From the NCBI RefSeq assembly GCF_003019035.1, contig NZ_CP027447.1: DNA of 64,000 nucleotides; one strand, written 5' to 3'. Made by a program: the position numbers and the translations under genes. Origin of the DNA: Escherichia coli. Its GTDB lineage: Bacteria; Pseudomonadota; Gammaproteobacteria; Enterobacterales; Enterobacteriaceae. Every line of letters begins with the position of its first letter. The first letter of the stretch is position 1. The notes beneath the pieces are model-generated. The model worked only from the letters and a program-made list of their open reading frames with translations. It searched no databases and was not told the DNA's origin. Positions 1,327 to 40,532 of this stretch are shown one piece after another.

Positions 1327-1462
1327 TAAATTATATCTGCCGCCAGGAATTTCTGGCGGAAATAATACAAAATTCTTTGCATAAGAAATTTTTCTTGACA
1401 AAGACAGTGCAAGAAAGGACATGGAATCCGGAGTTAAAAACTGTTTGTTTTAGAATATTTAA

Positions 1463-1942
1463 TTATTTAACTGCTGAATCTTCCTTGCGAGAAATATATC
1501 CATTATTACATTTCATGCCATTTTTAATATAGATTGCTCCTGGGAAAATTCCCGTATTATTACCGCAGGGGTGATAATTAGTATTGACATATCCTGTGAC
1601 AAAAGGAGCTATTAAAGGTGCTATTACGATAGCTATTAGTAAAAATATAAGAGTTAGCTGTATTGTTATGTCTGTGGCGAAATTGACTACCTTCGTTTTT
1701 TTGATTAAGAATGATTTTATTATCGTAAGTAAAATTACATGAATATTTAAAAAGGAAAACGACATGAAACCGAAGCACAGAATCAACATTCTCCAATCAT
1801 AAAATATTTCCGTGGAGCATTTTATTATTGAATATAGAGGTTTAACTCCGGTAAAAAACAAAGAAGCATTGAATGCAGGGAAAAATAATATGGCCATAAA
1901 AAACATCGAAAGAAACTCTTTTAATTTAACATGTAAACGCAT
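1463..1942 (-). CDS. Small polytopic inner-membrane protein (YkfM-like); candidate immunity protein for the upstream effector
   Basis: 159-aa ORF in very AT-rich DNA, several hydrophobic helices (FFMAILFFPAF, MLILCFGFMSFSFL, LTLIFLLIAIVIAPLIAPFV); starts about 10 bp after the upstream gene stop. Size and position match K-12 ykfM from memory (not verified). Confidence 0.55.
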   Translation of the reverse strand: MRLHVKLKEFLSMFFMAILFFPAFNASLFFTGVKPLYSIIKCSTEIFYDWRMLILCFGFMSFSFLNIHVILLTIIKSFLIKKTKVVNFATDITIQLTLIFLLIAIVIAPLIAPFVTGYVNTNYHPCGNNTGIFPGAIYIKNGMKCNNGYISRKEDSAVK

Positions 1943-1951
1943 GGTTAATCC

Positions 1952-2881
1952 TCATATCACGGGTGGAGTGTTAAGAACATACATAAATGGAGTCATGTTT
2001 TCCCTTTTCCATTTATCAAGTTCCTGTTGCCGTTTTAGTCCATCTCTAATTGCATATTTTAATTTTTCTGATAAATGGCATTGAGCATCGATTTCATTTA
2101 AAACAACTGTACACACTATCCCTGTCAGTAAAATTGCTCCTCCGACAAGAATTACTGGAAAGCCAAAGCTAACACAGGCAAAAGAAGCCAGGCTTCCAAT
2201 AGCGGTTGCAACACCACCGGCTATAACTGCTTTGGCCACATCCATTGAAAAATCGCCAAGAAAATTAACCAGATCTCGCTCTGAACTCATAATAAATTCT
2301 ATGGTTCTCCAGGCTACTGAAAACCAGATACAGAACTTAACTCCTTTTATTGATTCAGATAAAGCTCCTCGCCAGCCAATAGCGAGTTCCAGAACTTGAG
2401 GCGCTCGTGAAGAGAAAATATATTTACCGAGCTTTTCTAAAAGCCAGGGGCTGGATGTTGTGATTTTTATATATTTCTCTCCAAGTATTTCAAAGTAACT
2501 TGCTTTTGTATACTTTAAGGCATTAAGGTTAAATATAATTTTCCCATTGTCATCAAACTCAGTCATTAATTTACCCGCGTTAACTAACCAGGCGAGTGTA
2601 TCTTTTATACCTGAAGGATGTGTAGTGATAAAATGAATGTAATCAAATGATGTTATTGGGCTGAGTATTTTTTTTGCAACATCAAGTGTCAAGAGAATAA
2701 CATGATGAGTGTTCTGATGCCTTAACTCATCAATGAGTGGGACGTCGTTAAGATAAGGGTGCTGAGGTACTAGCTGGTTTATCGGCTGAGCCCCCCGAAG
2801 AATGTCACCCACATAATCAGCCCACTGTGCATTCTGTGTGTTGTTGTTATTCCTTAAACCAGCCATTTTATCTCTCCGCAA
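1952..2881 (-). CDS. Putative Hcp-associated T6SS cargo effector with C-terminal glycine-zipper transmembrane hairpin (YafU-like, full length)
   Basis: 309-aa ORF in AT-rich DNA immediately downstream of an Hcp paralogue (28-bp gap); C-terminal region AVIAGGVATAIGSLASF...FPVILVGGAILLTGIVCTVV has two glycine-zipper helices typical of membrane-disrupting toxins. Function inferred from context only. Confidence 0.5.
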   Translation of the reverse strand: MRRDKMAGLRNNNNTQNAQWADYVGDILRGAQPINQLVPQHPYLNDVPLIDELRHQNTHHVILLTLDVAKKILSPITSFDYIHFITTHPSGIKDTLAWLVNAGKLMTEFDDNGKIIFNLNALKYTKASYFEILGEKYIKITTSSPWLLEKLGKYIFSSRAPQVLELAIGWRGALSESIKGVKFCIWFSVAWRTIEFIMSSERDLVNFLGDFSMDVAKAVIAGGVATAIGSLASFACVSFGFPVILVGGAILLTGIVCTVVLNEIDAQCHLSEKLKYAIRDGLKRQQELDKWKRENMTPFMYVLNTPPVI

Positions 2882-2909
2882 TAGTAATTTATTATGTTAT
2901 TACAGTAAG

Positions 2910-3392
2910 TTACTGTACACGATCCTGCCATTTACTCATTGCATTCGTACCGGCTAACGTATGCTCCCAGGAAATATCTTCATAAATAAAGGCAATTCTC
3001 TCCTGTGGTTCCAGTTCTTTTTCCAGGACAGCATGCGGTGTGACAAAATCAATACTTGATATTCGGGCTTTTGACAGATTTATTTTATAATAAGGCTGGT
3101 AAATACCCGCTTTACTGGTTCGGTAGAGTATAAATTCACATAATGCCATTTTTTCATTGTCACTAAGTGCTTTTGCCAGCAATGGTGAGGATTTATCAAC
3201 CGGTTTGGTGATAATTAATTCATGATGATTGACATTTTGACTTCTTGAGATGGAATGCATTAACGCATAAACCATGATCTGATCTTTATGTTCTGGCTGC
3301 GCTTTGTTTCCGACAGAATCAAGCGTTGAGCAACCTGCTGAAATTAGCCCTTGTGTCTCTCCACTCAAAGATAAATAACTTATATTTGCCAT
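2910..3392 (-). CDS. Hcp-family protein (second, divergent Hcp paralogue)
   Basis: 160-aa ORF; N-terminal YLSLSGETQGLISAGCSTLDSVGN and C-terminal ISWEHTLAGT motifs parallel the main Hcp at 23478-23996 (YISITGQTQGNITAGAFTADSVGN ... IEWEHVKSGT). Confidence 0.7.
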   Translation of the reverse strand: MANISYLSLSGETQGLISAGCSTLDSVGNKAQPEHKDQIMVYALMHSISRSQNVNHHELIITKPVDKSSPLLAKALSDNEKMALCEFILYRTSKAGIYQPYYKINLSKARISSIDFVTPHAVLEKELEPQERIAFIYEDISWEHTLAGTNAMSKWQDRVQ

Positions 3393-3415
3393 GATAATCT
3401 CCTTTAATTAAATAA

Positions 3416-4768
3416 TTATTTTTCGGCCGTGGTACCGGTTGCCGCCTCTGGCATGACGTTATTCTTCAGCAGCAGCCAGCGGCTTAACACGCCTTCGAGT
3501 CGCTCATTAATTTGTTTTTCCAGCGCATCTGTATTCTGCTTCTGCGCACGGGCATCCTGGTACTGCGTCAACAGAGACTCAACGGGTGTTTCCTGCCCCA
3601 GTCCCCGCTCCGCCTGCCAGATGACATTTTTGATATAGGAAAGGGTTAGTCCCTCTTTCTCGCGCTGCATCACTAGATCTGCAAAAGCATGTAAGTCCTG
3701 GCGGGTCTGCAACCAGCCACGCAACTGCGGGCTACTCTGTGCGCGGGTTTTGAGTGCCTCATTCCATTGTGTCGAGGCCTGTTGCTGTTGCAGGCTTTCC
3801 GGCCAGCGACTGTCGGCAACACGCATCATCTGCATCCCGGTTTCCAGCGGCTGTACCGGGGAGGTATCAAGAAGTTGTTGCAGCCTGCGCTCATAGTTTT
3901 CGAGTTCAGGTGAGGCCATCCACACCGTTGCTGCGCCCTGAGCGGTGTCGTTAACCTGTAACAGTTGCTGCTGCACCGGATAGACCTGCCACCACCACAA
4001 TGCTGAGGCGACAGCCACTGAACAGGCGATCCCTGCGATAAACCCTCTTACCATACTGCCTTGCTTTATCACACTGGCCTGTGGGGGATTCTCTGTCAGA
4101 CTGCGCACTTCCACTTTCATCTCAGGCAGGCCAGGCAGGGGAGGCACTACCGCTTCTGGTGTGGAAGATGCCTGTGTTTCCGGGGCATAAATCAGCGTTC
4201 TGACCGTGGTCTGTGCGGCGTTCTCAGTGTTACTCTTCAGCTGGGGTTCAAGCCGTTTACGCGTGTTCTGCATAAAATAGAGCAGATTCTCCACGCGCGG
4301 AACGCGCTTCAGTTCCACCTGCTGGAGCTTATCGCAGATAAGCTGCAATGCCCGCTCTGTGCGGTAGATCAGTGGTAGGTCGGATTCCGCAAAGGAGATT
4401 TGCTGACGCAGAATATTGCCGGTTCGGGAGTTAAACCAGTCCAGCATTTCAGTACGCGCCGGGCCGCCCTGCGGCCAGAACTTATCCCAGTCGTGGCTTA
4501 CCATTGCCGCCAGCAGTTCCGCACCTTCGCAGAATCCCGCCAGTCCCTGTGTCCGTGTCCGGGCAAGCGTATAGTAGGTGGCGGTGTGTAAATCCACACC
4601 GTTGGCTTTAAAAATCGCCAGCGCCAGCGACTCCACCAGTTTCCAGTTCAGCTCAGGCTGTGACGGGTGGCTGGCTTTGTTTATTTCCTCGCGGATGGCG
4701 CTGAATTCCGGCAGCCCGCGCGGGTCACTGCCGGTAACGATAGTTTGTGTCAGTACGTTACTATTCAT
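3416..4768 (-). CDS. tagA: TssA-like ImpA_N-domain protein with transmembrane segment (TagA/VasL-like)
   Basis: Start set at MNSNVLTQ with strong RBS (gaggagg); N-terminal DPRGLPEFSAIREEINKA resembles the ImpA_N motif; mid-protein TM helix (GFIAGIACSVAVASALWWW). The ORF-track N-terminal extension overlaps the tssM stop and is rejected. Confidence 0.55.
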   Translation of the reverse strand: MNSNVLTQTIVTGSDPRGLPEFSAIREEINKASHPSQPELNWKLVESLALAIFKANGVDLHTATYYTLARTRTQGLAGFCEGAELLAAMVSHDWDKFWPQGGPARTEMLDWFNSRTGNILRQQISFAESDLPLIYRTERALQLICDKLQQVELKRVPRVENLLYFMQNTRKRLEPQLKSNTENAAQTTVRTLIYAPETQASSTPEAVVPPLPGLPEMKVEVRSLTENPPQASVIKQGSMVRGFIAGIACSVAVASALWWWQVYPVQQQLLQVNDTAQGAATVWMASPELENYERRLQQLLDTSPVQPLETGMQMMRVADSRWPESLQQQQASTQWNEALKTRAQSSPQLRGWLQTRQDLHAFADLVMQREKEGLTLSYIKNVIWQAERGLGQETPVESLLTQYQDARAQKQNTDALEKQINERLEGVLSRWLLLKNNVMPEAATGTTAEK

Positions 4769-4778
4769 CCCTGCCTCC

Positions 4779-7700
4779 TCAGTACAGTGTGTCTGACAGA
4801 CCAAACTGGCTGAACAACCCACCGCTGAACGGGTTATCTTCCGTGTCGGTATGCACACGGTAGGTCATCGCGCCACCGTCCACGCTAAAGCGCACGGTAA
4901 AGTTGCCATCCTGTACTCCGGTCAGTTGTCCGGCCCCGAACAGGCGGAACTGCGCCCACGGCCCGCTGAAGCTGATACTGCGCGGCGCGTTGCCGCTGGT
5001 GCCGATGAGCGTCAGCTTACTTTCGTTGCCTTCGCGCATGTTGTTAGGCCAGACCAGATGGGCGGTATAGTTACGGCCCTGGCTGTAATCGACTAACTGA
5101 CCGTCAAGGTTCAGTACACTGCGGCGTTTATTGCCTGAAAGCGATACCGTTTCCACGGCAAAGGATGTTCCCAGACCGTTCTGTTTGCTGAAGAAGATGT
5201 CACGGATTTTCTGCGCAGTTTCCAGTTGCGCAATAATATCTTCGCGAATAATGACGTTGTTATCGCCGTCTTCCAGGCTCAGATCATTGTCGATAAACAG
5301 TTTCAGGTTCTGCTGGTAGAAGGTATCCAGTATGCCATCCGGTTTAAAGAATCGTTCGAAGGCATCCAGTGAGGCATCCTGTGCAGAACGTGGATTAAAC
5401 GGATAGTTATTTGCCAGTTGCTCGTTAAACGGTTTCACCACGCTGTCGCGCCAGTCCACTTCCATATAGTGAACGGCTTCCACCATCACCACATGCCAGG
5501 CCTGGTCAGCCAGCCTGCCTACCCAGCGGTTGAGCGGAGCAGGCAGTGTTTTTGCCATCTGGCGGGTGGCGAATATTGGATCGCTGCTGTTCTGATCAAG
5601 CCTTAACTGCACGGCTTTCAGCGCCGATTTCCCTGGTACAGGCGCGTTCTGGATTGCCAGCAGGTAGCGGTGTAACTCGGTGAGCTGCTGGTATACGGCC
5701 TGCATCGTGCTTTCTTTGTCTTTCTGTACTGTCAGGGTACTGTTTTCCGGGGCGAATTCATGCCCGAGGCGGGTAAGTAACTGGTAATCCGGCTCTGCCA
5801 GGGCCTCATCCCGCTCTTTGGCAGAGAGTTTTTCAGAAAAGACTCCTGGCTGTGTGTTGTCACGCAGCACGGTCAGCGCCCGCTGCAAAGGCTGGTCGCC
5901 GCTGATAACCTGCTCCAGAGTGCCAGTCAGTTGTCCAATGGACTCAAAATTGCGGATATTGAGATTGTCCATCCCGGCCCGCCAGGTGGCGGTGTAGTCG
6001 CTGATATACTGCTCGGTCAACTGGCGCTGAATTTCCGCGCGGTCGGCGTCACTGTATTTCACGCTGCGGGTGAGGTTGAGTACCCAGGAATCCATCGCCG
6101 TCAGTTCAACCAGTTCATCGCGCTGTTTTACAAAATAGCTTTGCAGGCCGTAACGGGTAAGAAACTGTGGAACAACCAGTTTGTTATCATCGGCAGATGT
6201 AAACACCTGGTCAAAGGTTGGCCCTACCTGGTCACGCAGATTGAGGTCAGCAGGAAGAACGCCCAGCGCCCGCGTTTTCAGGCTCTGATAAACCCGCTGG
6301 TAGACAGGCAGTTTGCTCAGTTCTTTCTGTGCTGATACCACGGGCTTGTCATATGGCGTCCAGCGGCTGATGGCATCACCGTCGCCCGCCTGACGCTCTG
6401 CATGCCAGTCAGTATGAGCCAGCGCGTAGTCAAGATGGGACATCAGTTGTGTCTGGATATCGCGCTGTCCGTGGAACTTTTCGCTCCAGCGTTTTGCCAT
6501 ATACTGCTTCACCACCTCATTGTTACGTCCGCTTTTGTCCTCCAGCATTCGCATCACGCGCAGCACCGCGAGTTTTTCTTCACTCTCCGGCGGCGCGGCA
6601 TTCATCGCTTTGACCAGCCCGTTAAACAGCGAGGGCAGGTAACGCTGCTCCAGAAGTTGCAGATAGGTCTGTTCCACATATGGCCCGATACGTCTCCCCT
6701 GGTACAGGCCCATATCGGCCAGACGGCTGCGCTCGCCCCAGTCGCCATAGGCCAGTGTTGCATCGCGTACCGGGTTCAGCAGTGGCAGTTGCAGGTTGCC
6801 AAAGTCATCTTCCCCCTGCGGAGGCGGCACGTCCATAAAGGCTTTGGCCTGCTTAAGCACGGTGATGCCGGACTGATAGTTACCGTTGTAATAGTGATGC
6901 CAGCCGGTGATGAGCAGCAGTGCCGCCACGCCGCCTGTGGCAGAGAAAACCGTCAGGCGGCGACGGGAACGCATCAGCCAGGCGCTGCTCTCTGTTGCCA
7001 GATTAGGCTCTGCGAGTAATGCCTGCGGGAACAGGCTGCGGGTGAAATAAGGCGCGGTGTCCACCAGAGGCCAGGACGCCAGTGGGTTATTGCCCAGTCG
7101 GTACTGGCGGGCAGCAGACTGGGTGAATATATCATCCATCTGTCCACGCTGAAGCGAAGAGGTGAGATAGACACCACGCAGCATCACGTTCATATTTTCG
7201 CCGTCAAGCAGACCCTCAAGCAGTGACACCAGCGGCTCACGGCTTCCCTGCATCTGGCGGGAAAAACTGAATAAAGACGCGCGGGTGTGAGTCTGGGTGA
7301 CCATCAGATCCGGCAACGCCAGATTCATTCGATCCACCCATGTCTGCCAGAAAGCATTCAACTCTGTTCGCCAGTCATCATTTTCATGAGCACGGCGGGT
7401 GAACGTAACACCCAGAATCGCATCGCGATCCTGTCTGTTCAGTGACTGAAACAGGGCGGCAAAACCCTGCAATAAATCAAGCCGGGTCAGTACCACGTAA
7501 ACCGGTAACTGGCAATGAAGATGCTGGCGTATATCCTGTAAGCGGCTGCGCAGCGTCTGTAACAGATGCTCGCGGCGGCGTTTGTCTGCGGTCAGCAGAT
7601 CGGGTAAATCGAGTGTCAGAATAATCCCGTTCAGCGGCTGGCGCGCGCGCTTTTCCTTCAGCCAGCCGAGGGCATGTTCCCACAGACGGCGATGCAGGAT

Positions 7701-8303
7701 ATCCGCATCAGCGGGAGCGCAGAGTGTGCCGTCGATATCAAAGATCACCGCCTGTTTACCGACATGGGGCGTGAGGTACAGGCGTTGTTCTGCGCCGCGC
7801 GCGCCCTCCGGGGCATAAATAATGTCTGACGGAAACCCCTCGCGCAGCAGTGTCGTTTTGCCACTGCCCACAGGACCGATGACCATATACCACGGCAACT
7901 GCCACAGGAAACGGCGGTTGTCGAGATGGCGTTGCAGGCGCAGCAGCCAGCGGTCGAGGTAACGCTGCTGGGCGTTCAGTTCCACACTGAGCGCATCAAC
8001 GGCTTCCTCGCGCTGTTGCTTTTGCATTTTTTCAAGCTGTTGCAGGCGCTTCATTACCCGGACGGTAAGCCACACCAGGGCAATAATCCCCCACGCCGCC
8101 GTTGCCAGCCAGCGGTTCGCCAGTGGTTTGAGCCACTGCTCTTCATACAGCGTCCATGTCGGGCCTTTCCACCAGATCCATACCAGCAGGAAAATCCACG
8201 CCAGTATCAGCAGCCAGAATGCAGAAACTTTAAACCGGGGCATCGCCGGGCGCAGGGCTGATTTGAGTTCGCTGAATAGTCGGGGTGTTGGTAATCTGAA
8301 CAC
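4779..8303 (-). CDS. tssM: T6SS membrane complex protein TssM (IcmF)
   Basis: 1174-aa ORF; N-terminal TM helices, Walker A GPVGSGKTT, large periplasmic C-terminal domain. Confidence 0.9.
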   Translation of the reverse strand: MFRLPTPRLFSELKSALRPAMPRFKVSAFWLLILAWIFLLVWIWWKGPTWTLYEEQWLKPLANRWLATAAWGIIALVWLTVRVMKRLQQLEKMQKQQREEAVDALSVELNAQQRYLDRWLLRLQRHLDNRRFLWQLPWYMVIGPVGSGKTTLLREGFPSDIIYAPEGARGAEQRLYLTPHVGKQAVIFDIDGTLCAPADADILHRRLWEHALGWLKEKRARQPLNGIILTLDLPDLLTADKRRREHLLQTLRSRLQDIRQHLHCQLPVYVVLTRLDLLQGFAALFQSLNRQDRDAILGVTFTRRAHENDDWRTELNAFWQTWVDRMNLALPDLMVTQTHTRASLFSFSRQMQGSREPLVSLLEGLLDGENMNVMLRGVYLTSSLQRGQMDDIFTQSAARQYRLGNNPLASWPLVDTAPYFTRSLFPQALLAEPNLATESSAWLMRSRRRLTVFSATGGVAALLLITGWHHYYNGNYQSGITVLKQAKAFMDVPPPQGEDDFGNLQLPLLNPVRDATLAYGDWGERSRLADMGLYQGRRIGPYVEQTYLQLLEQRYLPSLFNGLVKAMNAAPPESEEKLAVLRVMRMLEDKSGRNNEVVKQYMAKRWSEKFHGQRDIQTQLMSHLDYALAHTDWHAERQAGDGDAISRWTPYDKPVVSAQKELSKLPVYQRVYQSLKTRALGVLPADLNLRDQVGPTFDQVFTSADDNKLVVPQFLTRYGLQSYFVKQRDELVELTAMDSWVLNLTRSVKYSDADRAEIQRQLTEQYISDYTATWRAGMDNLNIRNFESIGQLTGTLEQVISGDQPLQRALTVLRDNTQPGVFSEKLSAKERDEALAEPDYQLLTRLGHEFAPENSTLTVQKDKESTMQAVYQQLTELHRYLLAIQNAPVPGKSALKAVQLRLDQNSSDPIFATRQMAKTLPAPLNRWVGRLADQAWHVVMVEAVHYMEVDWRDSVVKPFNEQLANNYPFNPRSAQDASLDAFERFFKPDGILDTFYQQNLKLFIDNDLSLEDGDNNVIIREDIIAQLETAQKIRDIFFSKQNGLGTSFAVETVSLSGNKRRSVLNLDGQLVDYSQGRNYTAHLVWPNNMREGNESKLTLIGTSGNAPRSISFSGPWAQFRLFGAGQLTGVQDGNFTVRFSVDGGAMTYRVHTDTEDNPFSGGLFSQFGLSDTLY

Positions 8304-8321
8304 AAAAACTCCTGTTCTCTT

Positions 8322-9737: not shown

Positions 9738-9741
9738 ATTT

Positions 9742-13241: not shown

Positions 13242-13249
13242 AAACGTCC

Positions 13250-14011: not shown

Positions 14012-14015
14012 CGTC

Positions 14016-15347: not shown

Positions 15348-15349
15348 AA

Positions 15350-30598: not shown

Positions 30599-30609
30599 CA
30601 GGAGGAAAT

Positions 30610-31005
30610 ATGAAAGAATATATATTTTTAGTTTTATTTTTATTGTGTGGTTGTTCTCCAGTGGACATAGAGCCAGCTAGACAAGAAGTTAATATCTTTC
30701 GTGGTTTATATCAGACAGGAAAATACAGTGATATATATAAAATCACTTCAAGTGATTTTCAGACTGCCACATCTGAAAAAAAATTTATCGACATAATGAG
30801 CGAAGCAAAAGGAAAAGATCTTGGGACTTATAAAAAATCAACCCTTAAAACTGAAAAAATCACTCGCGGATTATTTTCAAACGATGAAATTACATTGATA
30901 TATTTCTCAGAATATTCAAAAAGAATTGTCCAAGAGGTTTTTGTGTTTAATGTTGAAGACAAAAAAGTAAAATTAAAAGGTTATAGGTATGATTCGATTA
31001 ATTAA
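30610..31005 (+). CDS. Small lipoprotein, putative cognate immunity protein for the Rhs C-terminal domain
   Basis: 131-aa ORF from ATG with RBS aggagg 5 bp upstream; signal peptide with cysteine (FLVLFLLCGCSP); AT-rich; starts 12 bp after the Rhs tip stop. Confidence 0.55.
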   Translation: MKEYIFLVLFLLCGCSPVDIEPARQEVNIFRGLYQTGKYSDIYKITSSDFQTATSEKKFIDIMSEAKGKDLGTYKKSTLKTEKITRGLFSNDEITLIYFSEYSKRIVQEVFVFNVEDKKVKLKGYRYDSIN

Positions 31006-31099
31006 ATTTTTTGATGATGACTTCAATTAGTAGAACATGTATTTTTCGATAAAAGCACCGATGACTTTTTCATGAAGTTCTACAGAGCGCGAGAAACAG

Positions 31100-32450: not shown

Positions 32451-32482
32451 AGTCTTACCCCGGCCCTAAACACAACCCCCAC

Positions 32483-33253: not shown

Positions 33254-33406
33254 GGTGTACAACTCCTTTATGCGAAGGGTTTTATAACTCTAACACCTTA
33301 TCAGGCAGTTGCCTTAGCGCAGAATAAATTGATAACAAATGCTGATATTGGAAATATCTGATTTGCAAATTATCGTGTTATCGCCAGGCTTTAGGAGGTT
33401 AATAAC

Positions 33407-33880
33407 ATGGGCAGGATAAGCTCGGGAGGAATGATGTTTAAGGCAATAACGACAGTCGCCGCTCTGGTCATCGCCACCAGTGCAATGGCGCAGGATGATT
33501 TAACCATTAGCAGCCTTGCAAAGGGCGAAACCACCAAAGCTGCGTTTAATCAGATGGTGCAAGGGCATAAGCTGCCTGCCTGGGTGATGAAAGGCGGTAC
33601 TTATACCCCTGCACAAACCGTAACGTTGGGAGATGAGACGTATCAGGTGATGAGCGCGTGCAAACCGCATGACTGTGGCTCGCAACGTATCGCTGTGATG
33701 TGGTCCGAGAAATCTAATCAGATGACGGGGCTGTTCTCGACCATTGATGAGAAAACGTCGCAAGAGAAACTCACCTGGTTGAATGTGAACGATGCGCTTT
33801 CTATTGATGGTAAAACGGTGCTGTTCGCGGCGTTGACCGGCAGCCTGGAAAACCATCCGGATGGCTTTAATTTTAAATAA
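33407..33880 (+). CDS. ivy: Inhibitor of vertebrate lysozyme Ivy
   Basis: 157-aa ORF with signal peptide and the CKPHDC loop motif; RBS aggagg. Confidence 0.9.
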   Translation: MGRISSGGMMFKAITTVAALVIATSAMAQDDLTISSLAKGETTKAAFNQMVQGHKLPAWVMKGGTYTPAQTVTLGDETYQVMSACKPHDCGSQRIAVMWSEKSNQMTGLFSTIDEKTSQEKLTWLNVNDALSIDGKTVLFAALTGSLENHPDGFNFK

Positions 33881-33894
33881 TTAGCGGATAAAGA

Positions 33895-33916
33895 AACGGA
33901 GCCTTTCGGCTCCGTT
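33895..33916. terminator. Bidirectional hairpin terminator between convergent ivy and fadE
   Basis: aacggagcc tttc ggctccgtt perfect hairpin flanked by A/T runs. Confidence 0.5.
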
Positions 33917-33922
33917 ATTCAA

Positions 33923-36367
33923 TTACGCGGCTTCAACTTTTCGCACTTTCTCCGGCAACTTTACCGGCTTCGTCGCCAGCTCTTCCGGATCAAAGTCATC
34001 AACATTAATACTGCGCAGACGGCTTTCTTCAGCTTTCACAAGAATAGCGGCTTCATCTTTATCAATCAGCCCCTTCGCCAGCGCGTTATGCGCCAGTTCA
34101 TCCAGACGGGTAAATGGCAGGTTTTTACCCAGCTCTTTACAGATCCTCTGATGAATTGGGTCGGCGGCAATCACATCCACCAGTGCCTCTTCCAGTAAAC
34201 CAACCGGGTTATGCTCGCTCGGCGTCAGGTACTGACCGCGGCCAATACGTGAGCGGGTGGCGTTTGGCACTTGTAAAATCTTCGCCACTTTATGATCCAG
34301 CTTGTCAGACGGTGCCAGATAATGACGTCCGGTCGGGAAGATCACCACATTCAGCAGCCCGGCAACCACGCGGTTCGGGAAGTTTTGCAGTAAATCGTCC
34401 ATCGCCTGCTCTGCCTGATACAGCGCATCCTGTACGCCCCAGTGCACCAGCGGCAGGTCGGCTTCATTACGGCCTTCGTCGTCATAACGCTTCAGAACGG
34501 CAGAGGCGAGGTAAAGCTGGCTTAAAATATCCCCCAGACGTGCCGAGATGCGCTCGCGACGTTTCAGGCTGCCGCCCAGCACCGCCATCGAGACATCAGA
34601 AAGCAGGGCGAGGTTGGCGCTCAGGCGGTTAAGATGCTGATAGTAGCGTTTAGTGGCATCGCCGGTTGGCGTGCTGCTGGTTAAACCGCGCGTCAGGCCC
34701 AGCCAGAAGCTGCGAACTTTGTTGCTACCGACGTGACCGATATGTTTGAACAGCAGTTTATCGAACGCGTTAACGTCATTGTTCTTCGCCGCTTCCATCT
34801 CTTCCAGCACGTACGGATGGCAACGAATCGCCCCCTGGCCGAAGATCATCATACTGCGGGTCAGAATGTTGGTCCCTTCAACGGTGATGGCAATCGGTGC
34901 GCCCTGATAAGCACGGGCCAGGAAGTTGCTCTGCCCGAGCATAATGCCTTTACCGCCGGTAATATCCATTGCATCAATAATTGACTGCTGCCCGCGGTGG
35001 GTACAGTGATACTTAACGATAGCCGACAGCACGGCAGGTTTTTCACCGAGCATAATGCCGTAGGTAATCAGCGATGCCGCAGCATCCATCACGTAGGCAT
35101 TACCGGCAATACGCGCCAGCGGCTCTTCAATCCCTTCCATCTTACCAATAGAGATTTTGAACTGACGGCGGATGTGCGCATACGCACCCGTTGCCAGCGC
35201 TACCGATTTCACGCCGCCGGTTGAGTTGGAAGGCAGGGTGATACCGCGGCCTACCGAGAGGCACTCCACCAGCATCCGCCAGCCTTGCCCGGCCATTTTC
35301 GGCCCGCCGATGATGTAATCGATCGGCACGAAGACATCTTTACCGCGCGTCGGTCCGTTCTGGAACGGTACGTTCAGCGGGAAGTGGCGACGACCAATTT
35401 CCACGCCCGGCGTGGTGGTCGGGATCAGCGCACAGGTAATACCTAAATCTTCTGTACCGCCGAGTAATTTCTCCGGGTCGGAGAGTTTAAACGCCAGCCC
35501 AAGCACGGTCGCAATCGGTGCCAGCGTAATGTAACGTTTGTTCCAGGTCAGTCGCATCCCCAGCACCTGCTGGCCCTGCCACTCGCCCATGCAAACAATC
35601 CCGGTATCCGGAATCGCGCCCGCATCGGAACCCGCTTCGGGGCTGGTCAGTGCAAAGCAAGGGATCTCCTGACCACGCGCCAGACGCGGCAGATAGTGAT
35701 CTTTCTGCTCGTCAGTGCCGTAATGTTGCAGCAGCTCGCCCGGACCTAATGAGTTCGGCACGCCGACGGTAATCGCCAGGATCCCGCTCACGCCGGAGAG
35801 TTTTTGCAGCACGCGAGACTGGGCATAAGCCGAGAACTCCAGCCCGCCGTACTCTTTTTTGATGATCATCGCGAAGAAGCGATGCTCTTTAAGATACGCC
35901 CACAGCTCCGGCGGCAAATCCGCCAGCTCATGGGTAATCTGGAAATCATTCGCCATCCGGCAGGCTTCTTCTACCGGACCGTCGAGAAACGCTTGCTCTT
36001 CAGCGGTCAGGCGCGGCTGCGGATAGTTATGCAGCTTTTTCCAGTCCGGCTTGCCCTGGAACAAATCGCCTTCCCACCAGGTGGTGCCCGCATCAATCGC
36101 TTCTTTCTCCGTGCGCGACATCGGCGGCATCACCTTACGGAAACCGCGAAATACCGGCGCGGAAATCATCGACCTACGCATAGGCGCAAAGTTAAATGGC
36201 ACGAGGATAATGGCCAGAGGCACCAGTACCCACACCGACCACAGACCAGCGACGCCGAGGGCGGCTGTCCAGGCGAGCAAAATCAGACTGCTGATAAATA
36301 AGCTCACGCGGTGATAGAACAACGCGCCGAGCAGGACAACCGTAGCGAGAATACTCAAAATCATCAT
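33923..36367 (-). CDS. fadE: Acyl-CoA dehydrogenase FadE
   Basis: About 814 aa from [20 protein letters not shown]; N-terminal membrane segment and acyl-CoA dehydrogenase core; the ORF-track N-terminal extension is rejected. Confidence 0.9.
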
Positions 36368-36387
36368 AACGAAAAGCCCCTTACTTG

Positions 36388-36406
36388 TAGGAGGTCTGAC
36401 CACTTG
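36388..36406 (-). promoter_or_regulatory. Candidate FadR operator upstream of fadE
   Basis: Palindromic GGTCTGACC core (gaggtctgaccac) about 25 bp upstream of the fadE start, resembling FadR sites (TGGTCnGACC). Confidence 0.4.
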
Positions 36407-36606
36407 TGATGATATGGTTGTAGTGGATGTGAAAACATTTAGCAATGCGTTTACAATATAATTACAACAAAGCTCACATTGTTGCTGTTTTTATCCGCAC
36501 TTCAGGTCAAAAAGTCCTGGTCATAGCACCTGCCCGTACTTCTCGCTTTTGGCGGTATCCGGTACACTGCATTTTGTCTATTACATTTATGCTGAAGGAT
36601 ATCCTC

Positions 36607-37185
36607 ATGTACCAGGATCTTATTCGTAACGAACTGAACGAAGCGGCGGAAACGCTGGCTAACTTTTTAAAAGATGACGCCAATATTCACGCCATTCAGC
36701 GCGCGGCGGTCCTGTTAGCAGACAGCTTTAAAGCCGGTGGCAAAGTGCTTTCCTGCGGCAACGGCGGCTCCCATTGCGACGCTATGCACTTTGCCGAAGA
36801 GTTGACCGGTCGCTACCGTGAAAACCGTCCGGGCTACCCGGCGATTGCCATTTCTGACGTTAGTCATATTTCCTGCGTCGGTAACGATTTTGGTTTCAAT
36901 GATATTTTCTCCCGTTACGTTGAAGCGGTAGGTCGCGAAGGCGATGTACTGCTGGGGATCTCTACCTCCGGTAACTCTGCAAACGTGATCAAAGCGATCG
37001 CAGCGGCGCGTGAGAAGGGGATGAAAGTGATCACCCTGACCGGTAAAGATGGCGGCAAAATGGCTGGCACGGCGGATATTGAAATTCGCGTTCCGCACTT
37101 TGGTTATGCCGACCGCATTCAGGAGATCCACATTAAAGTGATCCATATCCTGATCCAGTTAATTGAAAAAGAGATGGTTAAGTAA
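36607..37185 (+). CDS. gmhA: Phosphoheptose isomerase GmhA (LpcA)
   Basis: 192 aa from [21 protein letters not shown]; SIS-domain motifs ([24 protein letters not shown]). Confidence 0.9.
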
Positions 37186-37193
37186 GGTCTTTT

Positions 37194-37227
37194 CTCCCTT
37201 TCAGGGAGAGGGCCGGGGTGAGGGTAA
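37194..37227. repeat. GC-rich palindromic intergenic repeat (Box C-like family; family name uncertain)
   Basis: ctccctttcagggagagggccggggtgagggtaac; shares the CCCTC...GGGAGAGGG.TAGGGTGAGGG core with copies at 40476, 46942 and 56662-56770. Confidence 0.5.
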
Positions 37228-37300
37228 CAACCTGCACCTTTGTACTTTTTAATCAATCTTCGCCGGGGGCCATGCGCTCCCGCTGTTGTGGAGGTTACCC

Positions 37301-38068
37301 ATGTGCGAATTGCTCGGGATGAGCGCCAACGTCCCTACCGATATCTGCTTTAGTTTCACCGGACTTGTACAGCGTGGTGGTGGAACCGGGCCACATAAAG
37401 ATGGCTGGGGCATTACCTTTTACGAAGGTAAAGGCTGTCGCACATTTAAAGATCCGCAACCCAGCTTTAATTCCCCCATCGCCAAACTTGTCCAGGACTA
37501 CCCGATAAAATCCTGTTCGGTGGTGGCTCATATTCGCCAGGCGAATCGGGGAGAGGTGGCGCTGGAAAATACTCACCCGTTTACCCGCGAGTTATGGGGG
37601 CGTAACTGGACTTATGCCCATAATGGACAACTGACGGGCTACAAATCACTGGAAACCGGCAACTTCCGCCCGGTCGGTGAAACCGATAGCGAAAAAGCCT
37701 TTTGCTGGCTCCTGCATAAATTAACGCAGCGTTACCCGCGCACACCGGGCAACATGGCGGCAGTGTTTAAATATATCGCCTCACTGGCGGATGAACTGCG
37801 GCAGAAGGGCGTTTTCAACATGCTGCTTTCTGACGGGCGCTATGTAATGGCGTATTGCTCGACTAATTTACACTGGATCACCCGCCGCGCGCCGTTTGGC
37901 GTGGCAACGTTGCTGGATCAGGATGTGGAAATCGACTTCAGCTCGCAGACCACACCGAATGATGTGGTTACGGTGATTGCGACACAGCCGCTGACGGGCA
38001 ATGAAACCTGGCAAAAGATTATGCCAGGCGAATGGCGCTTATTTTGCCTCGGGGAGCGTGTAGTTTGA
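37301..38068 (+). CDS. yafJ: Class II glutamine amidotransferase-like protein YafJ
   Basis: Starts [10 protein letters not shown] (N-terminal nucleophile Cys after Met); RBS ggagg. Confidence 0.85.
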
Positions 38069-38779
38069 TGCCAGCTGTGGTTGCACAACTTCGTGGCTTA
38101 ACGGCTTGCTGACCACGTAACGGCCATTGACCACAGAAACGGTCGGTGGCTTACGGGTTTGCTCAAAGTAGTCGTAACCTGGCTTCAGCTGCTCCCAGAA
38201 GTCCTTAAAGTTGGAATATTTATGGCGCTTCATATTGGCGTCGGTCATGCGGAACGGGTAAATACTCACTTGCACGCTCGGCTGACCAAAAACCAGCGCA
38301 CCAGTAACGAACTGGAAGATCTCATCAATACCCTGATTGGTCATCGCGTAGCAGCCGATGGAAACACAATCGCCGTGGATCATCAGATATTTCCCTTCAT
38401 AACCATGCGCACGGTCATAGGCATTGGGGAATCCAATATTAATCGCTTTGTAGTAACGGCTGTCTGGTTTTAACTGATTACGCTGGACGCTATAAAACCC
38501 TTCCGGGCTTTTGAAATCGCCCTGACGCTGTTTTGGCCCTAAGCCGCCGGAATATTTACAGATTTTATAGCTGTCGAGCAGTTGATATTGCTCGCCCATT
38601 TTGACGTAGAGATCGAGCGTACGTTCTTCCTTGAAGATCTGGATGTAGACAGGGGATCCCATCAACTGCTGCTTATACTCTTTGCTCACTGGCGTGGTCG
38701 AGCTACTGCTGCCCAGCAAACCGGCAAACGAAACGCACGGGATCAACAACATCGCAAGAATTAATGCGATTTTACGCAT
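38039..38779 (-). CDS. yafK: L,D-transpeptidase-fold protein YafK (DpaA)
   Basis: 246-aa ORF with signal peptide; YkuD-like catalytic region ([14 protein letters not shown]). Confidence 0.85.
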
Positions 38780-38934
38780 ACTGCTTATTCCTTGATAAAA
38801 CGGTTACACACGCCAGGACGGCAAAATGGATCCCAAATCGGAATAGTCTGGATTGGGAAGGCTCACATTATCACCAAAAGAGTTTTACGCAAGCCTGTCG
38901 GCGCAGGGTTTACAAATTTCATCGGCAGCGGGCT

Positions 38935-39213
38935 TTACCCAAAGAGCGCCGCGTGAGTTCCAGTTCTCTCAAATCGTAAAAGTTTATCGGTAAGTTTGTA
39001 AATCAGGATCCAGTCCGGTTCGACATGAGCATCGCGATAACCTTTCCATGAACCTTGCAGCGGGTGGTCTTTATAAACAGCTGGAAGCAGTAAAGTATTA
39101 TTGATAAGAAGCGTCATAAGATATTTCAATTTATTCATATCCTTATGACGCTTTTGTGCAAGTTTTACATCCTTTGAAAATTGTCCCGAGTATTCAATAT
39201 CCCTTTGAATCAT
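38935..39213 (-). CDS. yafQ: Type II toxin YafQ (RelE-family mRNA interferase)
   Basis: 92-aa ORF immediately downstream of dinJ; classic antitoxin-toxin order. Confidence 0.9.
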   Translation of the reverse strand: MIQRDIEYSGQFSKDVKLAQKRHKDMNKLKYLMTLLINNTLLLPAVYKDHPLQGSWKGYRDAHVEPDWILIYKLTDKLLRFERTGTHAALFG

Positions 39214-39215
39214 AT

Positions 39216-39476
39216 TTAAATTCCTAATTTATCAAATAAATCATCGGCGTCTTTGGCCTTATGAACACCAACGCCAGCTTCGCTGTTTTTGATTGATTGA
39301 ATAGTTAATTGATTAGGCTCGCGTAAATCAAACGGCAATGCCTTTTCACGCGCGACTTTTGTGAGGGTTATGCGAACCAGGTCAGAGATGGTCAGCCCCA
39401 TCCCGGCCAGTACGTCCGCCGCCTGATTCTTCAGATCTTCATCGATTCGGGCGCGAACAAACGCGTTAGCAGCCAT
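39216..39476 (-). CDS. dinJ: Antitoxin DinJ
   Basis: 86-aa ORF, RBS aggag; precedes yafQ by 2 bp; LexA box directly upstream. Confidence 0.9.
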   Translation of the reverse strand: MAANAFVRARIDEDLKNQAADVLAGMGLTISDLVRITLTKVAREKALPFDLREPNQLTIQSIKNSEAGVGVHKAKDADDLFDKLGI

Positions 39477-39492
39477 TGGGGTATCTCCTGTG

Positions 39493-39508
39493 CTGTATAT
39501 TTATTCAG
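39493..39508. promoter_or_regulatory. LexA (SOS) box in dinJ promoter
   Basis: CTGTATATTTATTCAG matches CTGT-N8-ACAG with one mismatch, located just upstream of the dinJ RBS. Confidence 0.7.
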
Positions 39509-39685
39509 CTTGAATTGTAGCTCAAATGAGCAACAGCGACAATCCATGAGTAATTTAATAAACGGATGTTTTTACATAATTAACTGAAATATATTTATTA
39601 ATTTTATAATAATGGTTTATTAAGTTTGTTCAGGTACGGGCCGGGATACACTGCAACATCAATGCATGACCAGCCATTATTGAGA

Positions 39686-40435
39686 ATGTCTTTGCCGTCG
39701 ATTCCCTCTTTTGTGTTGTCGGGATTATTGTTGCTTTGCTTGCCGTTTTCTTCATTTGCCAGCGCCACCACATCACATATCTCTTTCAGCTACGCCGCCC
39801 GCCAGCGGATGCAAAACCGTGCGCGTTTATTAAAACAGTACCAAACCCATCTGAAAAAACAGGCCAGCTATATTGTGGAAGGCAATGCCGAAAGCAGAAA
39901 GGCGCTGCGCCAGCACAACCGCGAACAGATAAAACAGCATCCAGAATGGTTTCCTGCGCCGCTCAAGGCGAGTGACAGACGCTGGCAGGCGCTGGCGGAG
40001 AACAACCATTTCTTAAGCAGCGACCATCTACACAACATCACCGAAGTGGCGATTCACCGCCTGGAGCAGCAGCTTGGCAAGCCTTACGTCTGGGGCGGCA
40101 CGCGGCCCGATCAAGGCTTCGACTGTAGCGGGTTGGTTTTTTATGCCTACAACAAGATCCTCGAGGCGAAACTCCCGCGCACGGCTAATGAGATGTATCA
40201 CTACCATCGGGCAACGATTGTGGCGAATAACGACCTGCGCCGGGGAGATTTGCTGTTTTTCCATATTCACAGCCGCGAGATAGCCGATCATATGGGGGTG
40301 TATCTGGGAGACGGTCAGTTTATCGAGTCACCACGTACCGGCGAAACCATTCGGATAAGCCGGTTAGCTGAACCTTTCTGGCAGGATCATTTTTTAGGCG
40401 CGCGGCGGATTTTGACGGAAGAGACGATTTTGTAG
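39686..40435 (+). CDS. yafL: NlpC/P60-family lipoprotein YafL
   Basis: Start at MSLPSIPSFVLSGLLLLCLPFSS; NlpC/P60 catalytic motifs (GFDCSGLVFYAY ... DHMGVYLGDGQFIESP). Confidence 0.85.
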   Translation: MSLPSIPSFVLSGLLLLCLPFSSFASATTSHISFSYAARQRMQNRARLLKQYQTHLKKQASYIVEGNAESRKALRQHNREQIKQHPEWFPAPLKASDRRWQALAENNHFLSSDHLHNITEVAIHRLEQQLGKPYVWGGTRPDQGFDCSGLVFYAYNKILEAKLPRTANEMYHYHRATIVANNDLRRGDLLFFHIHSREIADHMGVYLGDGQFIESPRTGETIRISRLAEPFWQDHFLGARRILTEETIL

Positions 40436-40475
40436 GACGGCAATACTGCGAAAAAGTTAAAGTCGTACACGTTTT

Positions 40476-40503
40476 TCTCCCTCGCCCCAAAGGGGCGAGG
40501 GGA
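40476..40503. repeat. GC-rich palindromic repeat / hairpin at the yafL-lfhA junction
   Basis: tctccctcgccccaaaggggcgagggga perfect stem-loop between convergent yafL and lfhA; same family core as 37194/46942/56662. Confidence 0.45.
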
Positions 40504-40532
40504 CAGTCCGAGACCTTATATAGTCTCCCCCA

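Follow-up and report, generated by a model that had tools for sequence, protein, structure and literature searches.

Two known optional loci, a tRNA-Asp T6SS cluster and Flag-2, in an Escherichia coli genome and their very probable loss from K-12

The window analyzed here, a 64,000-nucleotide stretch of Escherichia coli DNA, carries in order dnaQ, aspV, a T6SS cluster, the backbone genes yafV to yafL, and then Flag-2. The interval between aspV and yafV (window 214-32458) is variable, and up to its Rhs tail we assigned the following features to it and to its left anchor.

137-213, plus strand: aspV, tRNA-Asp(GTC), left anchor of the variable interval (ARAGORN, Rfam)
541-1326, plus strand: yafT lipoprotein gene, GC ~0.43, inside the variable interval (K-12 annotation)
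1463-1942, minus strand: ykfM, 159 aa with 3-4 hydrophobic segments, downstream of hcp
1952-2866, minus strand: full-length yafU, 304 aa with a Gly-rich hydrophobic segment at 213-260, downstream of hcp
2910-22781, minus strand: T6SS core operon (SCU-301 RefSeq annotation of 99.9-100% identical DNA, ORFs, Pfam)
10482-13241, minus strand: tssH/clpV, intact
23478-23996, plus strand: second hcp, divergent from tssB, with an AT-rich intergenic region in between
24206-26314, plus strand: vgrG/tssI, 702 aa, intact (NCBIfam TIGR03361, 626 bits)

The core operon consists of hcp, vasL (ImpA_N/VasL), tssM, tssA, vasI, tssH/clpV, tssL/icmH, tssK, tssJ, tagH, tssG, tssF, tssE, tssC, a small ORF, and tssB, with Pfam matches for Hcp, VasL, and VasI. 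All 13 core components TssA-M, Hcp and VgrG included, are present as open reading frames under names taken from the SCU-301 RefSeq annotation. We found no Pfam family for yafT, and an effector/immunity role of ykfM and yafU is conceivable. The T6SS site extends from tRNA-Asp at 137-213 to yafV at 32483-33253. DNA similarity to annotated clusters, together with the tRNA-Asp site, indicates that the cluster is probably of the E. coli T6SS-2 type, whose members have the same set of genes (tssA-M, two or three hcp genes, vasL, vasI, and tagH) with vgrG-Rhs downstream. T6SS clusters of O104:H4, O111, and many commensals share ~97% DNA identity with that of the window, and the O157 and B2 genomes depart from the window sequence beginning at 1195-1271. 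We take Salmonella SPI-6, in a sister genus, to be a T6SS-bearing island at aspV, the same tRNA hot spot, presumably with a T6SS phylogenetic subtype and cargo different from those of the window. T6SS-2 variants integrate at tRNA-Asp, and tRNA-Asp clusters with T6SS-2 organization have been described (PMC8715443). The same dnaQ-aspV-to-yafV site is occupied by the EHS/37-kb aspV island of O157:H7 EDL933 and by the ECC-1470 and APEC-O1 variants (PMC5363993, PMC8715443, PMC3032704).

Downstream of vgrG, the cluster ends in an Rhs element with an H-repeat.

26381-30598, plus strand: Rhs, matching RHS_core positions 1-1202, then an amber codon, then 1204-1261 (NCBIfam NF041261)
30610-31005, plus strand: dsORF-e4 (RefSeq name), a 131-aa predicted lipoprotein with lipobox LLCGC, directly after the Rhs tip
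31013-31146, plus strand: IS1 fragment
~31147-32448, plus strand: ISEc1/H-repeat, transposase 31298-32434, right limit of homology 32444-32448

The order vgrG then rhs is present, and the Rhs core at 26381-29986 scored 2591 bits against NF041261. Unlike in known E. coli T6SS-2-type clusters, the Rhs frame is broken by one amber codon (TAG at 29987-29989; TAC in SCU-301), and there is no uninterrupted reading frame from the Rhs core into the toxin tip. A DPIGL motif and then the low-GC, Gly-rich C-terminal tip follow the amber codon, and the element thus has the core, DPxGL motif, variable tip, downstream small ORF, and H-rpt (ISEc1) of an Rhs element with H-repeat. Searches of dsORF-e4 against Pfam and NCBIfam gave no family above threshold; it is likely an immunity gene. 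The limits of ISEc1 were set from homology breaks, and the repeat finder returned no clean terminal inverted repeats for it. The block formed by the tip, dsORF-e4, the IS1 fragment, and ISEc1 is 97% identical to RhsE/ydcC loci elsewhere, and among 5426 genomes only SCU-301 has such an RhsE-type block adjoining yafV. These observations bear out the original prediction of a T6SS cluster of about 31 kb between yafT and yafV with an H-repeat end; the measured length is 31.1 kb.

To the right lie the backbone, a short spacer, and Flag-2.

32483-40435, unstranded: conserved backbone of yafV, ivy, fadE, gmhA, yafJ, dpaA, yafQ, dinJ, and yafL, 97% identical to K-12
40441-40537, unstranded: yafL-lfhA spacer, 97 bp
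40533-64000, unstranded: first 23.5 kb of Flag-2, continuing beyond the window (synteny with the annotated AR_0077 locus, tblastn)

As predicted, Flag-2 begins directly after yafL at a palindrome: lfhA starts at 40533, 97 bp past yafL, and the spacer contains a palindrome at 40478-40504 with a 10-bp stem (z = -3.6), with a second copy at 56735-56757. We rejected a curated RNA family as an identity for this palindrome, since the tRNA was the sole match in an Rfam scan of the whole window. The spacer stands where K-12 has the rayT REPtron (rayT with REP sequences on either side, ~900 bp) and O111 has a hicAB pair; its 97-bp state was found in 130 of 5426 genomes. The window has no counterpart of K-12 extract 11968-12863, and it differs from the Flag-2 locus of EAEC 042 and other Enterobacterales in lacking rayT between yafL and lfhA. 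The expectation that K-12 carries other genes after yafL therefore holds for rayT only, and the K-12 genes that follow are Flag-2 remnants.

The order of Flag-2 genes is lfhAB-lfiRQPNM (minus strand), lafK-lfiEFGHIJ (plus strand), cargo, lfgNMA (minus strand), and lfgBCDEFG (plus strand), with the cargo comprising genes for a nucleotidyltransferase, an 847-aa glycosyltransferase, and a FliB-like methylase. All 26 Flag-2 genes in the window are intact. Cluster 1, in the order lfhAB-lfiRQPNM-lafK-lfiEFGHIJ, has 14 of 14 genes at full length with 97.9-100% amino-acid identity to AR_0077; cluster 2 (lfgNMABCDEFGHIJKL) is represented from lfgN to lfgG, with the rest in two matching draft assemblies; and cluster 3 (lafA to lafTU), ending beside dinB, lies beyond the window and is present in GCA_018027855.1. 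No complete E. coli genome exceeded 97.4% identity over 42300-64000. We observed 0 mismatches in 6,467 bp between window 57534-64000 and GCA_018027855.1 and 1 mismatch in 15,353 bp between the window and another draft assembly. Exact protein look-ups reached the window lineage with LfgA and LfgL and gave other lineages with LfgD and LafU, which are common to many haplotypes. We also considered whether the window might be chimeric, combining SCU-301 with a Flag-2 of foreign origin, and rejected this because divergence from AR_0077 and Atlantibacter is continuous across the site between 42236 and 42237 and draft assemblies match. The Flag-2 locus of EAEC 042 was reportedly described by Ren et al. 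2005, J Bacteriol 187:1430. In EAEC 042 and other Enterobacterales, lfhA is likewise the first gene on the yafL side (PMC6993521), and lfgC is intact in the window versus reported frameshifted in EAEC 042 (PMC3032704).

Comparison with K-12 defined two breakpoints within these loci.

2304-2308, unstranded: left end of the K-12-type 29.8-kb deletion, GTTCT microhomology (blastn against K-12)
42234-42239, unstranded: left breakpoint site of the canonical Flag-2 deletion, between 42236 and 42237 at LfhA codons 130/131, uncut in the window, where lfhA is intact

By blastn, K-12 is collinear with the window over 1-2308 (99.3%), 32154-40440 (97%), and 40538-42236 (95%), with no match to 2309-32153 or to anything past 42236. 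The partner GTTCT copy lies at 32154-32158, and the K-12 deletion joins 2308 to 32154 via this 5-bp microhomology, a junction found in 371 of 5426 genomes. K-12 retains ykfM, only the 3' end of yafU, and an ISEc1 fragment, the yafF pseudogene, which is the ISEc1 3' end from 32154; its annotation lists yafU', yafF', lfhA', and lafU' as pseudogenes. The presumed contiguity of yafT and yafV in K-12 is thus inexact, as ykfM, yafU', and yafF' lie between them. At the other locus, the window presents the uncut left site of the K-12 fhiA (lfhA')-mbhA (lafU') scar, and the K-12 match ends exactly at 42236. K-12 fhiA and mbhA are terminal Flag-2 remnants (PMC3032704), and an lfhA-lafU deletion was reported in 76 of 100 E. 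coli strains (De Maayer et al. 2020, PMC6993521).

In the aspV-yafV interval, variable DNA begins at ~220, directly after aspV, rather than at 1400, and homology to the window stops at ~219/220 in ~20% of genomes; other breaks occur at 450, 1195-1271, and 1536. Accordingly, yafT is not universal core, being broken in O157 and B2 genomes (1195-1271) and missing from H10407-type genomes. ETEC H10407 has a different island at aspV (CP4-like sil/pco); as a further case of loss, it has no tss genes but keeps an Rhs remnant and ISAs1 adjoining yafV. On the right, genomes with yafV only begin to match the window at 32458. We measured composition as GC steps between adjacent 300-nt windows, with percentiles relative to the whole window. 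Of three GC shifts proposed originally, those at 30160 (-0.21 over 30031-30160, 99.8th percentile) and 32460 (+0.16 over 32401-32460, 98th percentile) were evident. The one at 1400 proved a modest internal step, with its local maximum of -0.15 (98th percentile) at ~1261-1400 and a value of just -0.10 at position 1400. Steps of equal or greater size had gone unlisted at 3421 (+0.19), 22871 (-0.20), 23381-23511 (+0.24), and 26391 (+0.20), and the stretch 214-3400 is AT-rich throughout (GC 0.30-0.44).

We find it very probable that the window holds two known optional loci, the tRNA-Asp T6SS cluster with a vgrG-Rhs-H-repeat tail and Flag-2, and that K-12 differs from it by loss rather than by the absence of insertions into an empty site. 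Loss of both is favored because K-12 keeps internal fragments of both loci. In the K-12 lineage, the alignment shows that the 29.8-kb deletion fused mid-yafU to the 3' portion of the ISEc1 transposase via the 5-bp microhomology and that the Flag-2 interior was excised between LfhA codon 130/131 and LafU codon 53. The original reading, in which two foreign islands entered a K-12-like backbone at junctions near 1400, 32460, and 40530 and K-12 is the unoccupied state, draws on the lack of both loci in K-12, the compositional steps near 1261-1400, 30031, and 32401, and the tRNA gene and IS element at the ends. We consider it very improbable: besides the persisting fragments (yafU', yafF', lfhA', and lafU'), the K-12 breakpoints (2308/32154 and 42236) lie inside island genes rather than at 1400 or 40530, other genomes break at the several left positions given above, and adjacent 300-nt windows show no GC step at the yafL/lfhA junction (40440-40530). 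The placement at aspV, the H-repeat terminus, and a right edge within ~10 bp of 32460 did hold. A classical integrase-mediated island in the 3' end of aspV, still able to excise, is also improbable, if slightly less so. The cluster lies immediately downstream of a tRNA gene, has atypical composition, and uses a site also used by other elements, such as the H10407 CP4-like sil/pco island and the 37-kb aspV island of EDL933, described as a composite pathogenicity island (PMC5363993). However, the ORFs and annotation of 214-32458 include no integrase or excisionase, searching 1-43000 for repeats yielded short chance matches only, with no aspV 3'-end duplicate and no meaningful flanking direct or inverted repeats, and variation between genomes consists of internal deletions and module replacement; the classical junction signatures are thus missing. 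The homology-break classes instead indicate that the interval is probably a mosaic, recombining hot spot, not integrase-borne, with candidate modules comprising AT-rich hcp-yafU-ykfM-yafT, the GC-rich tss core, and a Rhs tip/immunity gene/ISEc1 block that may have come from an RhsE-like locus by replacement. Ancient horizontal acquisition would fit both the AT-rich and GC-rich blocks and the placement at a tRNA gene. That both loci are ancestral and uniformly present, without island architecture, has next to no probability. From the remnants in K-12 and H10407 it is clear that the loci used to be more widespread, but among the 5426 complete genomes only 2020 (37%) carry the T6SS part, scored at ≥80% coverage, and 1258 (23%) carry Flag-2, counts that establish both clusters as variable accessory loci, and the aspV-yafV interval has several alternative contents.

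The Flag-2 breakpoint site abuts a GATC inside the palindrome TGATGATCATCA. In the deletion, LfhA codon 130/131 is fused to LafU codon 53; the divergent fragments lfhA' and lafU' stay behind, and the interior, 35.3 kb in the window lineage, is gone. In E. coli, 4087 genomes share this junction, set in at least five flank haplotypes ~5% apart; with 1292 genomes intact at the left junction, 5379 of 5426 are accounted for, with almost no alternative junctions. E. albertii, Citrobacter, Kluyvera, and Atlantibacter have it too, matching to the nucleotide, with flanks genus-specific right up to it. In the accessible literature, the scar is reported from many taxa, as are "direct repeats", and the parts available make no statement of a nucleotide-identical junction across genera with genus-specific flanks. 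Random microhomology-mediated deletion is disfavored: among direct-repeat pairs between lfhA and lafU, 68 exact 8-mer and 2 exact 10-mer pairs are bypassed for a 2-3-nt microhomology, GAT in E. coli or AT in Atlantibacter. An ancestral fixed deletion with Flag-2 re-import from other genera was likewise rejected, as similarity between genera is no higher in the interior than in the flanks.

The fixed junction suggests either that a precise deletion recurs or that a very old polymorphism has been maintained. Our tentative preference, held at somewhat short of even confidence, is that one precise deletion has recurred in distinct clones of E. coli as well as in E. albertii, Citrobacter, Kluyvera, and Atlantibacter, by a conserved mode of excision, site-specific or at a hot spot, that removes a 35-kb locus encoding no recombinase; we found no recombinase or recognizable recombination site explaining the fixed junction. 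In favor of recurrence are the flank identity of SCU-301 described below, the several E. coli flank haplotypes, the genus-specific flanks, and the lack of decay in the remnants. Less likely, one ancient deletion allele has been kept beside the intact locus across species and spread by homologous recombination, with the flanks homogenized by conversion tracts ending at the heterology boundary and the remnants perhaps under selection. Consistent with this, one junction occurs everywhere with almost no alternatives, the locus is a mosaic of 95% and 99.8% segments reflecting intense recombination, the lfhA' and lafU' remnants contain no stops and show far more synonymous than non-synonymous changes, even when Atlantibacter species are compared with one another, and ST131 work treats the region as recombinant (PMC5369007). 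Against it, both alleles would have to have been retained ever since Escherichia, Citrobacter, Kluyvera, and Atlantibacter diverged, and the intact locus diverges along with its host to either side of the junction site. Furthermore, the near-clonal but deleted SCU-301 is identical to the window lineage for 1292 bp left and 901 bp right of the junction, including a private SNP 7 bp from it (+7), which ordinary crossovers cannot deliver. Since a gain ("insertion") of Flag-2 within the ST131 clone, rather than loss, has been described (PMC5369007), the direction of change in any single lineage is not settled.

The gene content and order originally observed are real, and the two-island interpretation is partly supported. 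The layout is ordinary and already known, with two well-described optional gene clusters; as part of established E. coli genome geography, the two-island finding as stated matters little, and the corrected boundaries, like the recognition that K-12 derives from two deletions, serve annotation only. If it is true that a 35-kb flagellar locus is repeatedly lost at one nucleotide in several genera, this would be an unrecognized off-switch for a costly organelle; the alternative would be unusually strong balancing selection keeping both Flag-2 alleles. Under either reading, the K-12 lfhA and lafU "pseudogenes" would need re-interpretation.

The original prediction placed about 31 kb of T6SS genes between yafT and yafV, and both the gene order and the 31-kb size were correct. 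The single tRNA in the window is tRNA-Asp(GTC) at 137-213 (ARAGORN), and over its first 25 kb the window matches, at 100% identity, SCU-301 (NZ_CP051751.1), a near-clonal relative from whose RefSeq record we took over the T6SS gene names. Pfam and NCBIfam scans confirmed window ORFs as Hcp, ImpA_N/VasL, VasI, VgrG (626 bits), and RHS core (2591 bits), and the ISEc1 element is annotated in RefSeq as an ISAs1-family H-repeat. Within the aspV-yafV interval, no integrase is annotated, and a repeat search did not find a flanking repeat of the tRNA 3' end.

Gene order of the T6SS interval, as in SCU-301, and features within it
Left side: dnaQ, aspV, yafT (lipoprotein), ykfM, full-length yafU (hypothetical), hcp
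T6SS genes: vasL, tssM, tssA, vasI, tssH, icmH/tssL, tssK, tssJ, tagH, tssG, tssF, tssE, tssC, a small ORF, tssB
Divergent from tssB: hcp, vgrG, RHS core protein, dsORF-e4, IS1 fragment, ISEc1 transposase
After the ISEc1 transposase: yafV, ivy, fadE
1463-2866: yafU and ykfM, directly downstream of hcp; YafU has ~304-305 aa with a Gly-zipper-like hydrophobic segment at about 213-260, and YkfM has 159 aa with 3-4 hydrophobic segments
29900-32444: Rhs tip, dsORF-e4 (lipoprotein), IS1 fragment, and ISEc1 block

The comparison with K-12 on which the prediction drew requires correction. In blastn of the window against MG1655 235500-257000, matches covered 1-2308 (99.3%), 32154-37190 and 37248-40440 (both 97%), and 40538-42236 (95.06%), with yafV to yafL 97% identical. 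Contrary to the prediction, the K-12 yafT gene is not adjacent to yafV, since ykfM, a 339-bp yafU pseudogene, and a yafF pseudogene lie between them. K-12 yafU' corresponds to the 3' end of the window's 305-codon gene and yafF' to that of the ISEc1 transposase, and GTTCT is common to both deletion ends (2304-2308 and 32154-32158). These remnants and the shared GTTCT indicate that K-12 lost 29.8 kb by microhomology-mediated deletion, and the resulting junction is restricted to 371 of 5426 complete genomes. After yafL, K-12 carries ~900 bp with rayT between REP sequences, and the window carries 97 bp; the K-12 lfhA' match then runs exactly up to 42236 and is followed by lafU'. Because lfhA' and lafU' are Flag-2 remnants, the claim that K-12 carries other genes at this position holds for rayT only, and the K-12 genes beyond rayT have been stated to be Flag-2 remnants (PMC3032704; PMC6993521).

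Two of the three sharp GC shifts that had been proposed are among the strongest 2% of steps in the window: -0.21 at about 30031-30160, coinciding with the Rhs core/tip boundary, and +0.16 at 32401-32460, coinciding with the ISEc1/yafV boundary. A step near 1400 exists but is less pronounced (-0.15 at 1261, -0.10 at 1400) and internal to an AT-rich block at 214-3400. Equal or larger steps, unlisted in the prediction, occur at 3421, 22871, 23381-23511, and 26391, and no GC step was found at the yafL/lfhA junction. The palindromic repeat at the start of Flag-2 is present at 40478-40504 (z = -3.6 on folding). The left boundary given in the prediction also needs correcting.

In a spread sample of matches to window 1-3500, coverage was full in 2565 genomes. 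Elsewhere, homology ended at 2308 (the K-12 type), 1536, 1195-1271, 450, or 219/220. The 1195-1271 class, which comprises O157:H7 and B2 strains, ends inside yafT and is consistent with a second T6SS-2 variant at tRNA-Asp (PMC8715443); the 219/220 class ends immediately past aspV and makes up ~20% of the sampled matches. On the right side, ISEc1 homology stops at 32444-32448, and genomes without ISEc1 match from 32458. These ends delimit a variable interval of ~220-32458 with yafT inside it, and 1400 is not a junction. In ETEC H10407, a CP4-like element with cbtA and sil/pco metal-resistance genes follows aspV in place of the tss genes (20214-40219 of the H10407 region L005 and 1-14676 of L006), indicating that aspV is used by several different elements. 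Beside yafV, H10407 retains an Rhs gene truncated at its N-terminus, along with a dsORF and an ISAs1 element, making it another eroded derivative.

Window 1-25000 is present at ≥80% in 2020 of the 5426 genomes and the Flag-2 stretch 42300-64000 at ≥80% in 1258, while the K-12-type lfhA'/lafU' junction occurs in 4087. These frequencies agree with published figures of flag-2 in 24% of Escherichia and the scar in 76/100 E. coli (PMC6993521). An aspV-associated T6SS has been described for EDL933 (PMC5363993), as 'EHS' in E. coli W and other B1 strains (PMC3032704), and as T6SS-2 variants integrated at tRNA-Asp (PMC8715443). Given these descriptions of the aspV T6SS and of Flag-2, the architecture as originally framed is real but already known, and is of low interest as written.

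Neither YafU nor YkfM matched a family in Pfam or NCBIfam. The two look like a candidate membrane-targeting effector and immunity pair, and K-12, with ykfM but only the yafU 3' end, resembles a putative orphan immunity gene state. Recombination between the conserved Rhs core and the H-repeat is known to exchange tips. The block at 29900-32444 matches, at 97% identity, RhsE/ydcC loci that lie at another position in most genomes and, among the 5426 genomes, is joined to yafV only in SCU-301 besides the window; it looks like a tip/immunity swap through such Rhs core-H-repeat recombination. The Rhs core is broken by a single amber codon, TAG at 29987-29989, where SCU-301 has TAC (Tyr), and past it the frame is open again and encodes the DPIGL motif and a Gly-rich C-terminal tip. 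The main Rhs effector is therefore probably inactive in the window, unless the TAG base is a sequencing error. Within 220 bp of the ISEc1 transposase gene (31753-31972), 12 SNPs separate the window from SCU-301 in otherwise identical DNA, which could reflect gene conversion between ISEc1 copies or copy collapse in one assembly.

Flag-2 locus and associated repeats
From 40533: lfhA, lfhB, lfiRQPNM, lafK, lfiEFGHIJ, three cargo genes, lfgNMA, lfgBCDEFG
40479-40501 and 56735-56757: copies of a GC-rich intergenic palindrome, CCCTCGCCCC-AAA-GGGGCGAGGG
62918-62955 (lfgF-lfgG spacer) and 63783-63822 (post-lfgG spacer): REP-like sequences matching K-12 REP copies

All 26 Flag-2 genes in the window are full length, and their proteins are 95-100% identical to the annotated AR_0077 locus. 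Identity to AR_0077 alternates between 99.8% and ~95% across 600-nt bins, the O111 locus is ~5% diverged from the window throughout, and no complete genome is >97.4% identical to the window's Flag-2. Flag-2 proteins are nevertheless 98-100% identical between haplotypes (LfhA, 100%), and this DNA mosaic of deep haplotypes encoding near-identical proteins indicates strong purifying selection and frequent short-tract recombination. The lfgD-lfgE, lfgF-lfgG, and lfgG-lfgH spacers differ in length in other haplotypes (L013-L020), suggesting that repeat elements may come and go inside Flag-2.

The yafL-lfhA spacer is a small hot spot, occupied in at least three ways: the rayT REPtron in K-12 (11968-12863 of the MG1655 region L002), AR_0077, ATCC 8739, and PT62; a hicAB toxin-antitoxin pair in O111 11128 (4469-5096 of the O111 region L008), 2015C-3905, and 2015C-3121; and the 97-bp form with the GC-rich palindrome (40441-40537) in 130 genomes, including SCU-301 and FDAARGOS_497. 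Each state occurs with and without Flag-2. The second palindrome copy is flanked by the Flag-2 glycosyltransferase and FliB-like genes. No copies are expected by chance, no Rfam family matched, and the palindrome may resemble boxC-type repeats.

Sites of the Flag-2 deletion
Window 42236|42237: uncut left site
GCA_018027855.1 contig (L024) 20029|20030: right site
MG1655 region (L002) 14562|14563: K-12 junction

The E. coli deletion junction reads AAAGTTGAT|TGTCAAC, and the reciprocal circle junction to be expected from Flag-2 excision is GCTGTGGAT|GATCATCAGG. Flag-2 is missing from SCU-301, where the K-12 junction falls on the same base. Across ~30 kb of unique DNA, 1 SNP and 1 single-base indel separate SCU-301 from the window; the remaining differences are in multi-copy vgrG/Rhs and ISEc1 sequences. 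Over 40945-42236, the two are 100% identical. Exact-protein look-ups in NCBI drafts found the window lineage in GCA_003884515.1 (1 mismatch in 15,353 bp) and GCA_018027855.1 (0 mismatches in 6,467 bp), whose contig extends to lafU and dinB; the deletion spans 42237-77562 (35,326 bp) of the composite sequence. Right of the right breakpoint, Flag-2-positive GCA_018027855.1 and SCU-301 have 0 mismatches over 901 bp, including a T at +7 absent from 15 other alleles, while the next-closest Flag-2-positive haplotypes show 6-7 site differences. With identical flanks on both sides, the intact and deleted alleles share one private haplotype up to the junction.

This junction is shared by at least five left-flank haplotypes that differ from one another by 4.5-6% (K-12, window, O111, BEN2908, and PT62 types). 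No stop or indel was found in the 566 retained lfhA codons of 8 deletion alleles, and ~85% of lfhA' differences among deletion alleles are at third codon positions. The 2015C-3121 deletion allele equals the intact O111 11128 allele across all 1699 left-flank bases, and the 380 bp closest to the junction are identical in intact ATCC 8739 and the K-12 deletion allele. Genomes with the deletion, together with those intact at the left junction, make up 5379 of 5426, so that alternative junctions are rare. The left breakpoint abuts GATC within the palindrome TGATGATCATCA, the right breakpoint is in the loop of an 8-bp hairpin, and the ends share only GAT. Between lfhA and lafU, 68 exact 8-mer and 2 exact 10-mer direct-repeat pairs went unused, and no recombinase or recognisable site is evident at the junction.

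One genome per species was scanned with a junction pattern of 24 specified bases that left third codon positions degenerate; it matched E. albertii, 3 Atlantibacter species, Kluyvera ascorbata, and Citrobacter sp. MGH106. Further matches were an E. coli draft and two contigs that resemble E. coli but had been assigned to gut MAGs. These two short contigs (L036 and L037, from 'Clostridiales' and 'Collinsella' MAGs) bear lfhA'/lafU' scars of the E. coli type, with 1 to 86 mismatches to K-12, and are probably mis-binned E. coli DNA. By tblastn, the join is identical in all matches, with LfhA from residue 131 and LafU from residue 53. Flanks in these other taxa are 18-24% diverged from E. coli up to the junction, and their lfhA' contains no stops or indels save one frameshift in E. 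albertii. Synonymous codon differences greatly outnumber non-synonymous ones, even between Atlantibacter species (lfhA', 112:8 and 202:19; lafU', 93:41).

Atlantibacter has been reported without flag-2 (0/5 strains; PMC6993521), but A. subterraneus has full-length LfhA (696 aa, 99% identical) and LafU (332 aa) on contigs showing an intact locus. Left of the junction, 19/1701 nt separate the A. subterranea deletion allele from this locus; to the right, a single nt differs within the first 150. The Atlantibacter ends share only AT (GTTAAT|GATC and GTGGAT|CGTC). Intact loci of E. coli and Atlantibacter are 81-83% and 85-77% identical on either side of the junction site, and this similarity indicates that there was no recent exchange of the interior between genera. 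Truncated genes in many taxa and direct repeats have been described (PMC6993521), and work on ST131 speaks of Flag-2 'insertion' and recombination (PMC5369007); nucleotide-level junction identity across genera is not stated in the accessible papers on the scar, flag-2, or ST131.

We tentatively propose from these comparisons that a site-specific or hot-spot process may repeatedly produce the Flag-2 deletion at one fixed position, although we hold this at somewhat short of an even chance. Recurrent deletion would be a simple explanation for the pairing of SCU-301 with the window lineage, the range of haplotypes, flanks that are specific to each genus, and remnants that have not decayed. A rather doubtful alternative is that a single old deletion allele persisted alongside the intact locus in several genera; the matching flanks would then have been homogenised by conversion tracts ending where heterology starts, and selection may act on the remnants. 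What probability remains falls to mixtures of recurrent deletion and an old persisting allele, or to a junction that passed between genera and was then homogenised. The Flag-2 deletion junction, whose left site at 42236|42237 lies just outside the coordinates of the original prediction, is the sole item deserving follow-up.
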